Of a DNA stretch of 64,000 nucleotides, positions 59,561 to 64,000 are shown in pieces. Origin of the DNA: a virus. Position 1 is the first letter of the stretch, and each line of letters opens with the position of its first letter. A program made the position numbers and the translations under genes. The stretch lies in the IMG/VR virus record IMGVR_UViG_3300043101_000125; one strand, written 5' to 3'. The notes beneath the pieces were generated by a model. It saw nothing but the letters and a program-made list of their open reading frames with translations. It was not told the DNA's origin and made no database searches.

Positions 59561-59700
59561 TCAGTCTTCCTCTTCATGCTCATCCCTAAATCCCTGCTCA
59601 GGGCAGTCGCGCCAAGGATTCCGCAACATGCAACCCCCATCTGCGTAGTAAGGGCAGTCCCAATTATCATCAATGCAATCCCAATCAACTGGCTTTTTCA
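59561..59700 (-). CDS. Small Cys/Trp/Asp-rich protein (about 46 aa; MKKPVDWDC...). The ORF-table N-terminal extension overlaps its own promoter.
   Basis: Class-3 promoter and RBS immediately upstream of MKKPVDWDCIDDNWDCPYY... Confidence 0.45.
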
Positions 59701-59793
59701 TTTCTTTTACCTCTCTTTCATTTGATACACTTATTTTACCATGAAAAAACATCGTTGTCAAGAGAAAAATCCCAATTTCTTGGGATTTTTTCT

Positions 59794-60204
59794 TTATTTT
59801 TTCGGTTTTCGCTTCTGAACAAGCGTAAATTCATAGGTTTCATCCCCAATTTGGAAAGAAATCTGTCTTTCTGCATTAGTAATTGTAACATTTTCATAGG
59901 AAATTTCGGAATTTTCCTGCAAAAACTGTGCAATTTGTGCAATTACACCAGATTTTGTGGTGTTTTCTTTCTTTTTTTTCTCGAATTTATAGGTTGTAGG
60001 CTTCTTTGTGGTAGTTTTTGTACCAGTCTTAGTGTTCGCCTTAACTACCTTTTTCTGCTCTTCTGTCAAGTCATTTGTGACTTCCTTCATTGACATTTTA
60101 TCGACCTCAAGGTCATCCATTACAAGGGCAAGTGCTTCATCTCTGGACAGACCTAAAACTTTCATCTGTTTGGAAACTTCCTTTTCAATCTGTTGTGGTG
60201 TCAT
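59794..60204 (-). CDS. Hypothetical Lys/Thr-rich protein (136 aa).
   Basis: Class-3 promoter with a leader mini-ORF (MKKGSR) upstream. Confidence 0.5.
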   Translation of the reverse strand: MTPQQIEKEVSKQMKVLGLSRDEALALVMDDLEVDKMSMKEVTNDLTEEQKKVVKANTKTGTKTTTKKPTTYKFEKKKKENTTKSGVIAQIAQFLQENSEISYENVTITNAERQISFQIGDETYEFTLVQKRKPKK

Positions 60205-60303
60205 TTTATCGACTTCCTTTCTTCATTTGATACATTAAGTATAGCACACAATTCTAGATCTGTCAAGAGTTTTTTAAACTTTTCCCCTACGGGGAGGGGA
60301 GGA

Positions 60304-60681
60304 TTACTCCTCCTCCTCAATTTCCGCAAGCTTGAAGTAAGCTTTTCTCTTTTCCTCAAATCTGATAACTTTACCTTCATCTTTGAGCTGTCTAACAAGG
60401 GCTGTTACTTTCTGGTTTGCTAAACCTTCCAGTTCCGGAATTTCCTTCATCATCTGGGAGATTGTAGCGGAAGCACCGCCTGCAAGATGAGTAAGGATAA
60501 CATTTTTCAGACCTTCATTAGCAGTCTGGGTAGCAGTCGGCTTGCGCTCTGCTGAATTTTTCTTAATGGTCTGCTCAAGAATTTTCTCAAGCTTTGTAAC
60601 TGCTTCTTCATTACCTGTTGCTCTAACTGCTTCGATTGCGATTTCAAGGGCTACTTTGTTTGTCATTTTGTTGTTCATCAT
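60304..60681 (-). CDS. Winged-helix-like small protein, paralog of the 62376-62753 gene.
   Basis: About 60% identity to its paralog (MTNKxALEIAI...SAERKPTATQ...VIRxEEKRKxYF). Confidence 0.55.
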   Translation of the reverse strand: MMNNKMTNKVALEIAIEAVRATGNEEAVTKLEKILEQTIKKNSAERKPTATQTANEGLKNVILTHLAGGASATISQMMKEIPELEGLANQKVTALVRQLKDEGKVIRFEEKRKAYFKLAEIEEEE

Positions 60682-60805
60682 GGTATCTACCTCTTTCTTT
60701 CTTTTTTTTATTTGTTTTCTTTGTTCTTTATGTATTTATTATATCATGGGTTATTAGGTTTGTCAAGCTTTTTTTTTATTTTTTTTTGGATTTTTGTTTG
60801 GGGAT

Positions 60806-61189
60806 TCAATCCCCAAACATTTCCTTTACTTTGATAACTTTCTCATACTCGATGTCGAAATTTCTCCATTCACCAGAAGGCGAATAGTAGTAATGCCCAA
60901 TTGATGGGGTCAAACCATTGTAATCATCAAAAGGATTAGAAAGACCTTCTTCCTCTCCCCAATACTGGATAAACAAAGCGGCTTCTTCGGTCTTAGTTCC
61001 GATGAAGTAGGCATCTTCTAATCTCTCAACTGAATTACCTTCTTCATCTGCTAAAGTGAACTGTCCAACAACCGCATTCAGTGCAAGCTGAAATTCATAG
61101 TTTCTGCATTCATCTTCATCCCAGAACTGTGCTCCATCATTAGCTTCATAGTAAGTTACTTCCTTCATTTTATCAATTCCTTTCTTCAT
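60806..61189 (-). CDS. Hypothetical acidic protein (127 aa).
   Basis: ORF with a class-3 promoter upstream. Confidence 0.5.
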   Translation of the reverse strand: MKKGIDKMKEVTYYEANDGAQFWDEDECRNYEFQLALNAVVGQFTLADEEGNSVERLEDAYFIGTKTEEAALFIQYWGEEEGLSNPFDDYNGLTPSIGHYYYSPSGEWRNFDIEYEKVIKVKEMFGD

Positions 61190-61225
61190 TTGATGTATTT
61201 ATTATATCATGGGTTCGGGGTTTTG

Positions 61226-61426
61226 TCAACCCCCAAATCCAAACTTTTTAGCGATTTTTTTACATCTCGCTATTCTTGCTTCTTCATTACCGCTTTCCAT
61301 CTGGAAAGTAGTGTACTTTACTTTAAAAGGATGTCCAGAAGCAACCGCTTCTGCATAGCTTGTGGTTTCAACTCCATTTACCAAATAAGATACTTTTGTC
61401 ATTTTACATTTCCTCTCTTTCTTCAT
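61226..61426 (-). CDS. Small protein (66 aa; the true start may be the second ATG, MTKVSY...).
   Basis: ORF with a class-3 promoter upstream. Confidence 0.4.
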   Translation of the reverse strand: MKKERKCKMTKVSYLVNGVETTSYAEAVASGHPFKVKYTTFQMESGNEEARIARCKKIAKKFGFGG

Positions 61427-61613
61427 TTGATGTAATCATTATAACATAGATTTGAGGGTCTGTCAATAGTTTTTTTAACTTTTCTCGATTTTTTCTTCTA
61501 GCTGACCGCTTTACCATGCGGGCGTCTTTTGCCCTGTTCCGATTATGAACACATTTTGCGTTGATGTCCCAACAGGTAAAGCCCACCATTGTTTCTCTCT
61601 TAAAAGCATCCAT
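61404..61613 (-). CDS. Small basic protein (69 aa).
   Basis: ORF only. Confidence 0.4.
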   Translation of the reverse strand: MDAFKRETMVGFTCWDINAKCVHNRNRAKDARMVKRSARRKNREKLKKLLTDPQIYVIMITSNEEREEM

Positions 61614-61726
61614 TGTTTGTTCCCTCCTTTACTTTCTAAAGAAATTATACCAAAATTTTGGGAAAATGTCAATTCCGGAATATTAACCAAAATTTGAGAA
61701 GAAAATTTGTATAGATTGACTATTGA

Positions 61727-62090: not shown

Positions 62091-62291
62091 TCAATAAGAA
62101 TTTTCATAATCCACAACCATTTCTTTATATCTGCCGGAAATCGTATTTCTAAGAATCCGCCATACTCTCCAAATGGGATTTCCACCCGTAAAAGCTGAAT
62201 GATAAACACTCTTGAAATTGTTTAAAGATTTTCTTTCCGTCCACGCTTTAAGTGCATGGTATGTACTTGCTTTAATGTTCCATTTTGCCAT
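62091..62291 (-). CDS. Small protein (66 aa).
   Basis: ORF with a class-3 promoter upstream. Confidence 0.45.
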   Translation of the reverse strand: MAKWNIKASTYHALKAWTERKSLNNFKSVYHSAFTGGNPIWRVWRILRNTISGRYKEMVVDYENSY

Positions 62292-62375
62292 TTTTCTTTT
62301 CCTCTCTTTCTTTTGATACTGTTATTATACCATAGCGTGGACTAGTTGTCAACCCCCTTTGGGGGAAACTGAGGA

Positions 62376-62753
62376 TTATTCCTCAGTTTCAGTGTTAAGG
62401 TAAAAGTATACCTTTCTCTTTTCCTCAATTCTGATGACTACGCCATCTTCTTTGAGCTGTCTCACAATAGCGGAGACTTTCTGGTTAGACAGCCCCTCAA
62501 GGCTTGCCACACCTTTCATAATCTCTGTTACTGTCGCTCTCTTGCCATCAGACAGGAAAGCTACAATGTCTGCTTTCAGACCTTCATTAGCAACCTGCGT
62601 TGCTGTCGGTTTTCTCTCCGCAGAGTTCTTTTTAACAGTCTGCTCAAGAATTTTCTCAAGCTTTTCAATAACCTCTGTATTCGGGGTTTCCTGTGCTCCC
62701 AGAGTTGCGATTGCGATTTCCAGTGCCTTTTTGTTAGTCATTTTGTTTGTCAT
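62376..62753 (-). CDS. Winged-helix-like small protein, paralog of the 60304-60681 gene.
   Basis: See the paralog entry. Confidence 0.55.
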   Translation of the reverse strand: MTNKMTNKKALEIAIATLGAQETPNTEVIEKLEKILEQTVKKNSAERKPTATQVANEGLKADIVAFLSDGKRATVTEIMKGVASLEGLSNQKVSAIVRQLKEDGVVIRIEEKRKVYFYLNTETEE

Positions 62754-63387
62754 AGTATCAATTCCTTTCTGGTTTTTAGAACTTTTTCCTTGTTCCTTTT
62801 GATGTTTTTATTATATCATGTTTGATAATGGTTGTCAAGAGGTTTTTGAAAAAACTTTTTTGGGTGCTTTGCTTAGGTAAGTCTTGTTTATTTGATTGAA
62901 TAGTTGGTTCCTTGCCATTCTTCAACTGGAAACCGCTTACACTCTAAGCAACTGTTTGGTTTTTCTCAACCTCTGTGACTCCATTATAACACTCTCAGCT
63001 AAGATTGTCAAGTGTTTTTTTTTATTTCATCTTCTGGATTTTCGAGGAGCGCTCAACTCGTTTTCCTTCTTGATGCTTTTATTATATCATAGCTTGAAGT
63101 GTTTGTCAAGAAGTTTTTTTTATTTTTTTTTGAAGATGGCTCTTCCGACCGCCAATTACAACCTATCCAAGTTCGACTGTTAGGCAACTTCCTTCTTGAC
63201 TATGTACTTATTATAGCACATCTGGTTTAGTTTGTCAAGAGGTTTTTTTTATTTTTTTTCTTTCGGCTTCTGGAAGCCTTTCCCTCCTGACAGTTATTAT
63301 AATATCACATCTACCCCTAGAATACAATTGGTAAAATGCACAAATTTTGGGAAAAATATTTGTGCAGTTTTTTCACCGGTTTTGCTT

Positions 63388-63417
63388 GACAAAATGCTGA
63401 AGCCTGTGGTATAATCG
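63388..63417 (+). promoter_or_regulatory. Plus-strand consensus promoter (TTGACA-N18-TATAAT), convergent to the minus-strand gene block.
   Basis: cTTGACAaaatgctgaagcctgtggTATAATcg. Confidence 0.55.
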
Positions 63418-63423
63418 AAATTC

Positions 63424-63505
63424 TGGCCGCGTCAGTGGAAAGCGGCCAGCCCAATTATCGGGCTGACCTTAGGCTTACAGCTGATAGCCTAAGCCTTTCA
63501 GCAGG
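63424..63505 (+). ncRNA. Candidate small RNA. Three GC hairpins sit downstream of the plus-strand promoter, antisense to the 3' end of the 63475-63776 gene.
   Basis: ggccgc-gtcagtggaaa-gcggcc; agccc-aattatc-gggct; cttaggct-tacagctga-tagcctaag. Confidence 0.4.
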
Positions 63506-63776
63506 TCAATTAGCTGTTCACTCTTGGTGTACTGACGATGGTTCGGGATGAGTACAGCGGCTACCACCTCAGCTTTGTATCCGGTGTCGAACTCCGGATC
63601 ATCCAGAGCCTCCTGAGGAGTCATGAACTGGATGCGGTTGATGATGGTCACGTTGCCATCGGCGTCATTCGCATCGAGGAAGTCAGCCGCCTCAAACGGG
63701 TCAGCGAACAGTGCGTTGTATTCAGCTCCATTGATTGTCATGTAATATTTGTCTAACATTTTCATTACCTCTCTTT
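63475..63776 (-). CDS. Hypothetical acidic protein (about 100 aa; starts MKMLDKYY). The ORF-table extension to 63933 overlaps the promoter and terminator.
   Basis: The class-3 promoter at about 63790-63835 and its RBS precede MKMLDKYYMTINGAEY... Confidence 0.45.
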
Positions 63777-63899
63777 CATTTGATAAGACTATTATAATGC
63801 CTACGTGCCATTTTGTCAACCCATTTCGGGAAATTCGTTTAAAAAATTTTGCACAAAGATTTCCAAAAGAAAAACTCTGAACTATACAAACTGCACAAA

Positions 63900-63921
63900 A
63901 ACCGCCCCGCGCAAGCGTAAT
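63900..63921 (-). terminator. GC hairpin terminator downstream of a class-3 promoter whose 35 element is at about 63948-63953.
   Basis: ccgccccgcgc-aagcgtaatc-gggcgg followed by a T-run on the minus strand. Confidence 0.5.
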
Positions 63922-64000
63922 CGGGCGGCCCAATTATACTTCACCTTTTGGATTTTGTCAATAGGCAAAATGCACAAAATTTTGATTCGTCATTTTGCAC

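Follow-up and report, generated by a model that had tools for sequence, protein, structure and literature searches.

A dense array of near-consensus promoters and small orphan genes as a probable early host-takeover-type region of a large low-GC phage

Introduction

What does a phage gain from placing its own copy of a near-perfect host-type promoter in front of almost every gene of a long row of very small genes, and at which stage of infection would such a row be used? This question is raised by the last 4.3 kb of a 64,000-nucleotide stretch of viral DNA, taken from IMG/VR record IMGVR_UViG_3300043101_000125 and referred to here in its full length as the window. An earlier note, made by a model from the sequence of the window alone, had described in this terminal block (59700-63980) a separate family of TTGACA-N17-TATAAT promoters on the minus strand, each followed by a conserved leader and a small gene, and had likened it to the early promoter cluster of phage T7. 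Here we followed up this observation by motif statistics, protein family scans, structure modelling and comparison with related metagenomic contigs. We propose that the block is probably the promoter-distal end of an early host-takeover-type region of 14-15 kb, carried by a large (about 175-195 kb) phage of low GC content.

Results

A promoter family confined to the end of the window

The motif TTGACA-N16-18-TATAAT was searched for on both strands of the 64 kb window, and dinucleotide-preserving shuffles served as the null. We found 16 exact matches, whereas the shuffled sequences averaged 0.09 and never had more than 1; 13 of the 16 fall within 60738-63961 on the minus strand, and every one of these has a spacer of exactly 17 nt. 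A consensus scan added two minus-strand sites that match 11 of the 12 consensus positions, at 60266 (TATACT) and 59761 (TAAAAT), giving a total of 15 promoter-like sites (13 at 12/12 and 2 at 11/12) within 4.2 kb of a single strand. All 15 thus combine consensus-type -35 and -10 hexamers at the 17±1 nt distance of sigma-70/sigma-A promoters, with a spacer of 17 nt throughout. The 14 positions that had been listed as promoters all map to these sites or to their leaders, though one promoter, P61672 (61672-61644, 12/12, with TG), had been overlooked.

The sites have more in common than the two hexamers. An extended -10 TG is found in 12 of the 15, runs of A6-A9 lie upstream of seven, and tracts of A8-A9 stand immediately 5' of P63238, P63109, P63011 and P60766. 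Pooling 148 non-redundant promoters of the family, from the window and its relatives, yielded a consensus of an A-tract, TTGACAA, TG (66%) and an A-rich start region. Judged by their sequence, these motifs have every part of a strong host sigma-70/sigma-A promoter, namely a UP-like A-tract, a -35, a 17-nt spacer, TG and a -10. The copies also share the sequence of their spacers (64-79% identity over 45-68 nt), which points to their common descent.

The remainder of the window is organized by a second promoter class, (A)ATTGATTTTT followed by an A/T spacer and TATAAT (the TTGATTTTT class), which is very uniform and stands upstream of most genes outside the block. TTGATT-N16-18-TATAAT has 33 exact sites between 3314 and 59076, where 0.39 would be expected, and none in the block. 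The claim that the TTGACA family is confined to the block was thereby upheld, as the other 56 kb uses the TTGATTTTT class, and this spatial split of the two classes is the strongest internal argument for regarding the block as a separate regulatory unit. The block also differs in its GC content (38.4% versus 33.3% elsewhere in the window). Outside it the window holds no exact TTGACA-class site except for two at its far end, at 613-641 (minus strand, inside the listed open reading frame (ORF) 241-708) and at 777-805 (plus strand), both TTGACA-N17-TATAAT.

Small genes and their leaders

Ten of the 15 promoters are linked to a gene, with 25-56 nt between the end of the -10 and the ATG (30-35 nt in seven of them), and the ten ORFs concerned, of 46-136 amino acids (aa), occupy 62% of the block. 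The statement that a promoter precedes each small gene therefore holds for the genes, as each of the ten small ORFs has one, but not for the promoters, 5 of the 15 not being linked to a gene. These five comprise three extra tandem promoters that feed a winged-helix gene and two that run into a GC hairpin and a T-run.

Following the minus strand downstream, P63819 (63791-63819, 12/12) precedes an acidic 96-aa ORF without a family match (MKMLDKYY…, 63475-63765). Beyond the tandem promoters and the first winged-helix gene, which are described below, P62352 (62324-62352, 12/12, TG), with a C5/G5 hairpin adjoining its -35, precedes a 66-aa orphan ORF (62091-62291), and P62094 (62066-62094, 12/12, TG) a second orphan of 66 aa (61833-62033). 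P61672 (61644-61672) leads to a 69-aa orphan ORF (61404-61613), the 3' end of which passes through the next promoter, P61466 (61438-61466, 12/12, TG), itself followed by a 58-aa orphan ORF (61226-61402). Next come P61229 (61201-61229, 12/12, TG), whose -35 is bracketed by a G4/C4 stem, with a 120-aa orphan ORF (60806-61168); P60766 (60738-60766, 12/12, TG, A9 tract) with the second winged-helix paralog (60304-60681); P60266 (60238-60266, 11/12, TG) with a 136-aa orphan ORF (59794-60204); and P59761 (59733-59761, 11/12, TG) with a Cys-rich orphan ORF of 46 aa (59561-59701), the final gene of the block. Packing is so tight that in two cassettes the TGA of the -35 hexamer TTGACA is the stop codon of the preceding ORF (62089-62094, ending the first 66-aa ORF, and 61224-61229, ending the 58-aa ORF). 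Ordinary gene-end terminators were found at two places in the 4.3 kb, an intrinsic-terminator-like hairpin followed by T8 at 61834-61813 and a terminator-like hairpin of 11 bp at 59556-59531, which closes the block and beyond which genes use the TTGATTTTT class; there are, in addition, two elements consisting of a hairpin and T5. With only two ordinary terminators, transcription from successive promoters should accumulate along the block.

A CATCAA motif is conserved 6-11 nt past the -10, its position making an A 7 nt downstream of the -10 the likely transcription start. Counted from this start, the conserved leader corresponds to the first 20-25 transcribed bases; it is rich in purines and ends in a Shine-Dalgarno sequence, GAAAGAGAGG or AAGGA. 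The form ATCAAATGAA is present in five of the ten gene-linked promoters, two further ones carry ATCAAAAGAAAG or ATCAAAAAGAAAG, and looser ATCAA variants are found at P62838 (gene-linked) and P63109 (not gene-linked); among the 148 pooled promoters, only 13% have ATCAAATGAA.

The leader had further been credited with a mini-ORF of six codons. Such a peptide, MKKGSR*, does exist before 59794-60204 (at P60266), but a leader ATG is found in five of the ten gene-linked leaders, and what follows it varies: MKKGSR* once, MKER* twice (P63819 and P59761) and, in two instances, a frame shared with the main ORF (61426 and 61189). A leader peptide would be marked by a short ORF that is conserved, has a ribosome-binding site of its own and keeps its frame or peptide, a combination that these leaders do not show. 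Since frame and length vary, and since the ATG would stand about 6 nt from the presumed 5' end and lacks a preceding Shine-Dalgarno sequence, the mini-ORF is probably incidental.

Four tandem promoters precede a winged-helix gene

Upstream of the first winged-helix gene four promoters follow one another, all 12/12 and with TG: P63238 (63210-63238), with an upstream A8 and a non-coding spacer after it, P63109 (63081-63109, A9 tract), P63011 (62983-63011, A9) and P62838 (62810-62838), the last of them 56 nt from the ATG. Their -35 starts are thus 129, 98 and 173 nt apart. Four tandem promoters with A-tracts had been claimed for 62770-63290, and we confirmed this arrangement, including the presence of ATGAAATAA upstream of P63011. 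No minus-strand terminator was found between 63238 and 62753. Two candidate genes in this interval were considered and rejected: a 44-aa ORF starting with TTG in the first tandem spacer, which is broken by a 13-nt indel in near-identical contigs (L003-L006), and genes of 65-76 aa called in the corresponding slot of three relatives (L032-L034), which overlie homologous non-coding promoter DNA. Because neither a terminator nor a genuine gene intervenes, all four promoters should feed the ORF at 62753-62376.

This ORF encodes a 125-aa protein with 919 metagenomic relatives, present in two or three copies per genome; the second copy in the block is 64% identical to it. Its structural model (pLDDT 84) comprises two N-terminal helices, forming a helical hairpin, and a C-terminal winged helix-turn-helix, and Foldseek matched it to DNA-binding proteins of the MarR, ArsR, MecI and AspA types (E about 1e-3, query TM about 0.45). 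When the ten small proteins were scanned against PHROG and Pfam, the only matches were sub-threshold winged-helix ones for the two paralogs, and tblastn of the winged-helix protein against 50,697 phage records gave no match. We regard this protein as a candidate regulator. The number of tandem promoters upstream of its gene ranges from 2 to 4 among close strains (the P63011 unit, for instance, is missing from L010 and L032-L034), and at least two are present in every lineage, including relatives at ~60% protein identity.

The block is the downstream third of a longer array

Many metagenomic contigs, of up to 175,749 bp, encode the exact 125-aa protein. IMG/VR relatives were compared in two groups, contigs ~92% identical to the window in DNA sequence (L009, L010, L028-L031) and ~195 kb genomes at ~60% protein identity (L011-L024). 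Every relative has 25-34 exact promoters within 12-15 kb of a single strand, about one per small gene; in L010 and L029 the array measures ~13.9 kb, with ~35 promoters and ~37 small ORFs, and near-consensus promoters number about 35-45 per genome. From the length of the array in these relatives it follows that the block in the window is only the downstream third of an array of ~14-15 kb, and in L001 and L036 further cassettes indeed continue past window position 64000. The block is therefore not the self-contained cluster that it had been taken for.

Unusual DNA flanks the array. Upstream of it the sequence is non-coding, GC-rich in L029 (7200-7600) and of low complexity in L013 (1440-2520); at this upstream border in the ~195 kb relatives there are ~900 bp of non-coding low-complexity repeats of the ACATAC, GTAGGG and AGACAA types (L013 1700-2300). 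The downstream flank in the window (59530-58250) consists of GC-rich and CT-repeat DNA: at 58250-58420 and 59200-59530, just downstream of the block, lie degenerate tandem repeats rich in CT and a non-coding stretch of high GC content, and within this GC-rich stretch a 31-nt repeat, with CATATGAGG or a close variant at its end, occurs three times. Upstream and downstream flanks, when compared, shared no similarity.

A probable early region read by the host polymerase

We interpret these findings as follows. After entry of the DNA, the fifteen near-consensus promoters would be recognized, without the help of phage factors, by unmodified host RNA polymerase with its primary sigma factor, and transcripts would start ~7 nt past the -10, where CATCAA has its conserved CA. 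The short purine-rich leader, placing a strong Shine-Dalgarno sequence ~20-25 nt from the presumed 5' end, would provide for efficient translation. It could also stabilize the 5' end of the RNA, by analogy with Bacillus phage SP82, in which the ribosome-binding region of an early RNA protects the 5' end in Bacillus subtilis (Hue et al. 1995, cited in PMC7509114). The output of successive promoters would sum along the block, the four tandem ones driving the small winged-helix DNA-binding protein, and the host would be the target of the small orphan proteins.

The window itself is that of a large phage: nearly all ORFs of at least 120 aa lie on the minus strand, the GC content is 33%, and among the gene products are PhoH, an RNA ligase, SH3-domain lysins and a topoisomerase subunit resembling GyrB. 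Among the window ORFs scanned, none was noticed to be a T4-type core gene, and a nucleotide search of the block against the 50,697 phage records gave no match. The host probably belongs to the Bacillota.

Several points weigh against this interpretation. One third of the promoters in the block (5 of 15) have no gene of their own, and the small proteins showed no homology by PHROG or Pfam to known host-takeover proteins. The TTGATTTTT class has a consensus -10 and a -35-like TTGATT, and the host polymerase may read both classes, which may then differ in strength or regulation and not strictly in time. Early timing and promoter activity are argued by analogy with other phages, and the sole hint as to the host is a lysin SH3 repeat 28% identical to a metagenome-assembled Clostridiales genome. 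With these points taken into account, we still consider an early host-takeover-type region the likely explanation.

Recombination at the promoter repeats

A different account of the repeats starts from the cassettes termed PeSLs, which in T4-type phages are built from an AT-rich upstream tract, a promoter of sigma-70 consensus and a G/C stem-loop whose place varies and may be right behind the -10, precede orphan genes, act as crossover points between close relatives and mediate modular shuffling, and which are described from myoviruses of Gram-negative hosts, where they are dispersed over several hyperplastic regions (PMC2839356, PMC4122927). Could the repeats studied here be chiefly mobile or recombinogenic cassettes of this type that shuffle orphan genes, the gene-less tandem promoters being leftovers of deletions?

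All components of the PeSL composite are present, namely an AT-rich tract, a sigma-70 promoter, a G/C stem-loop, a Shine-Dalgarno sequence and an orphan gene. The stem-loop varies in its position, being located upstream of the -35 (62352), around the -35 (61229) or past the -10 (63961 and 61792), and in adjoining or overlapping several -35 boxes it follows what PMC2839356 describes for PeSLs. Crossovers were likewise found where PeSLs would place them, as indels and replacements between close relatives fall inside the cassettes. L010 lacks the cassette made up of the 66-aa ORF at 62291-62091 and P62094 of the window, and the promoter at this deletion is a chimera, corresponding to P62352 up to the -10 and to the P62094 leader thereafter. 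It also lacks the P63011 unit, where its promoter joins the upstream part of P63109 to the downstream part of P62838, with the crossover in the -10. Across 11 genome pairs, 20 of the 24 junctions of indels of at least 100 nt lie inside promoter cassettes in both genomes, compared with ~20% expected, the share of the region that such cassettes cover; the count includes events common to several genomes and represents roughly 15 independent ones. Many of the junctions overlap by 50-90 nt, the mark of homologous exchange between repeats.

The chimeric promoters, the position and overlap of the junctions, the similarity among promoter copies, the varying number of tandem promoters in close strains and the stem-loops all speak for the shuffling account, and we rate it as evenly balanced. 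At least two tandem promoters were kept upstream of the winged-helix gene in every lineage, however, which suggests selection for multiple promoters there. Promoter function is, moreover, compatible with shuffling, since PeSLs are themselves active early promoters. In the reading that we prefer, the promoter/leader repeats of the early region also act as portable homology, through which promoter-gene cassettes are gained, lost and exchanged among strains by recombination.

Where the genome ends may lie

A further possibility concerns the place of the array in the packaged DNA, for which the earlier note had suggested a site near a genome end. In SPO1 the host-takeover module is situated in the terminal redundancy (PMC6873191, PMC7414437), and by analogy the block could be part of a long direct terminal repeat of the SPO1/T5 kind, present at both ends of the packaged DNA and entering the cell first. 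The unusual non-coding repeat-rich DNA on both sides of the array would suit this arrangement, as would the ends of contig 3300045988_154609 (195,571 bp), which abut at the same nucleotide inside the array without overlap, between a Shine-Dalgarno sequence and an ATG. One tip of this contig starts with an Illumina adapter remnant, TGCTCTTCCGATCT, and a second contig ends within 1 nt of the junction site; the ends concerned are L023 1-14, L014 end and L019 end.

Contig 122850 has a short identical stretch at both ends, and a 32-nt end probe matches both. The end matches of these two contigs indicate that the related genomes assemble as circles. Circular assembly fits a collapsed terminal repeat or circular permutation; the circles carry no duplicated block, though, and the two flanks of the array share no sequence. 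The ends of other contigs lie in different promoter or paralog repeats, which is what assembly breaks would produce, and breaks at repeats are the simpler explanation for such scattered ends. On balance, we regard a terminal repeat as conceivable but rather doubtful, and the early host-takeover-type reading of the block, as set out above, remains the one that we prefer.

Gene-less promoters with an upstream box

Two of the gene-less promoters belong to a separate subclass. P63961 (63933-63961) and P61792 (61764-61792), both 12/12, are 79% identical over 48 nt and have neither TG nor leader nor gene. Their counterparts in the list of the earlier note, 63940 and 61772, were thus real promoters but did not belong with the leader-bearing, gene-linked ones. 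Upstream of each there is a box, which is an exact TTTGTGCA before P63961 (63971-63978) and a degenerate TTTATGCA before P61792, and a GC hairpin with T5 starts 2-4 nt past the -10. After P63961 this hairpin (63893-63932) begins 2 nt past the -10 and resembles an intrinsic terminator or attenuator; after P61792 (61729-61762) it follows the -10 directly, and its predicted energy is still -14.5 kcal/mol if the RNA starts at +7. The transcript predicted for either promoter would be about 30-35 nt long. Owing to the GC-rich sequence, neither hairpin taken singly stands out from shuffled sequences (z -1.6 and +0.3).

A plus-strand promoter at 63386-63415 (12/12, 18-nt spacer, TG), directed antisense into the 96-aa gene, is of the same subclass; close relatives have kept its counterpart. 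The antisense RNA predicted from it would begin with two adjoining GC hairpins (63425-63464, -21.5 kcal/mol, z -2.1), and an operator-like palindrome, TGCACAAA-N14-TTTGTGCA, lies at 63337-63366. Five of the six occurrences of TTTGTGCA in the window fall within 63337-63978, and the motif is about 20-fold enriched in the presumed early arrays of every lineage. Of 28 boxes that precede a promoter, 21 begin at -16/-17 relative to the -35. Box-type promoters are followed by GC hairpins, whose stem sequences differ between copies.

In the relatives, near-consensus promoters also occur face to face, with one or two such pairs per related genome examined (L013 4591/4722 and 17578/17679; L010 6673/6767; L024 5208/5301; L025 9602/9695). 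Their -10 ends are 36-74 nt apart, and the DNA between these ends has 55-76% GC and contains a hairpin. The window holds a single intact member of such a pair, the plus-strand promoter at 63386. At this distance two open complexes could hardly coexist, and the two RNAs are predicted to overlap at their 5' ends and the polymerases to interfere with each other.

How should this subclass be read? A conservative alternative is that its members are attenuators or insulators of the PeSL type, or ordinary promoter/terminator cassettes. Less conservatively, they could constitute a switch of mutually exclusive promoters, or a gene for a tiny RNA. That the box-promoter-hairpin modules and the face-to-face pairs form a new regulatory device, in which mutually exclusive promoters or tiny complementary RNAs partition or silence early transcription, appears unlikely to us at present, if worth stating; the TTTTGTGCA box might then be read by the winged-helix protein, which would be heavily expressed. 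Hairpin RNAs that mimic CRISPR repeats (RNA anti-CRISPRs) were considered and set aside, their loops being of 9-14 nt and their flanks unlike those of typical repeats.

Timing and a possible polymerase sink

Two weaker explanations deal with what the array does as a whole. The promoters could be active without being early, forming constitutive moron-like units that are expressed throughout infection or from a prophage or plasmid form. Each gene does have its own promoter, some terminators are present, gene content is mosaic, and the other promoter class likewise has a sigma-A-like -10. Yet all units lie on one strand in one contiguous block of 14-15 kb and are not scattered, with its 21 tRNA genes and a topoisomerase subunit the window looks like that of a large virulent phage, and no cultured or deposited phage or prophage among the 50,697 phage records was matched, so that this explanation seems improbable to us. 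Least probable of all is that the array acts as a sink that titrates sigma-A holoenzyme away from host genes and by itself aids host shut-off: the density of promoters in each genome and the gene-less third of those in the window, including the two that run straight into a hairpin and T5, would suit it, but it is purely inferential, most promoters are precisely placed before genes with strong ribosome-binding sites, and a single infecting genome would offer few sites relative to the polymerases in a cell.

Other features of the window

Between 27265 and 42517, ARAGORN identified the 21 tRNA genes (24 Rfam tRNA matches), which lie among minus-strand genes, several of them behind TTGATTTTT-class promoters. 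Rfam scans at gathering and permissive thresholds matched only such tRNAs, elsewhere in the window, and yielded nothing credible in 57-64 kb. An 814-aa ORF at 22636-25080 matches the shoulder and repeat domains of the major vault protein (PF11978 at 6e-21, PF17795), and its neighbour at 25215-26729 carries DUF2828 and DUF7788; such content is unusual in a phage. A 250-bp non-coding stretch at 57270-57520, a candidate replication origin or operator array, holds the palindrome CTACAAATTTTTGTAG about ten times and is adjoined by a plus-strand ORF (56891-57274) with DUF6291 and a helix-turn-helix.

Discussion

To summarize, the array delimits what is probably the set of early host-takeover genes in a widespread lineage of uncultivated gut-type phages of ~195 kb, and it provides a short list of small proteins for activity tests against Bacillota hosts. 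About 150 natural variants of what would be very strong promoter/leader units become available for expression work in Gram-positive bacteria. The use of promoter cassettes as recombination modules, documented so far in T4-type phages, is extended to an unrelated phage group, and the two promoter classes make temporal regulation directly testable in this lineage.

How does the array compare with known systems? For the face-to-face pairs, the nearest parallels are pIN/pOUT of IS10 and pR/pL of coliphage 186, which are also face-to-face promoter pairs; the likeness consists in the facing consensus promoters of the relatives with a GC hairpin between them, whereas no transposase or lysis-lysogeny genes are attached to the pairs described here.

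The tandem promoters bring to mind T7, as the earlier note had proposed. The early promoters A1-A3 of T7 are spaced about 125 nt apart, and the comparison is apt as far as geometry goes, with four tandem promoters, no terminator between them and one gene fed. As in T7 A1-A2-A3 and in the pre-early and early regions of T5, strong promoters here follow one another (at 98-173 nt) with neither genes nor terminators between. The T7 cluster is located at the left physical end of the genome and is the only set of host-polymerase promoters, whereas the tandem set here is internal to a much larger array.

With PeSLs the array shares cassettes of promoter, stem-loop and orphan gene that have crossovers inside them, a resemblance of function and architecture. 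It differs in forming a single array of 14-15 kb, in a phage with Gram-positive-style signals, where PeSLs are dispersed. The fixed upstream TTTTGTGCA box and the face-to-face pairs were also not found in the PeSL section of PMC2839356.

The closest functional analogue is SPO1's host-takeover module. In that phage, genes 37-60 lie in a terminal redundancy of 12.4-13 kb and comprise 24-26 small early genes, whose promoters and ribosome-binding sites are of the kind seen in highly expressed genes (PMC6873191, PMC7414437). We likewise found small genes clustered in one contiguous block, with strong promoters of the host type and strong ribosome-binding sites, 10 ORFs in the 4.3 kb of the block and ~37 in ~14 kb in L010 and L029, and the two systems agree in their size of 12-15 kb, in their dozens of small, mostly uncharacterized genes, in their host-sigma promoters and in being set apart from regions with other promoter classes. 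The non-early genes of SPO1 use motifs of the sigma factors gp28 and gp33/34, whereas the remaining genes here keep a TATAAT -10. There is nearly one promoter per gene in the array, compared with about a dozen operon promoters in SPO1, and protein homology was not detected, in that no PHROG or Pfam family ties the products of the block to SPO1 gp37-gp60.

An array of early-promoter/orphan-gene cassettes is therefore a known kind of system, here carried by a lineage that has no cultured or deposited relative, and the part of it most worth a further look is the set of gene-less box-promoter-hairpin modules.

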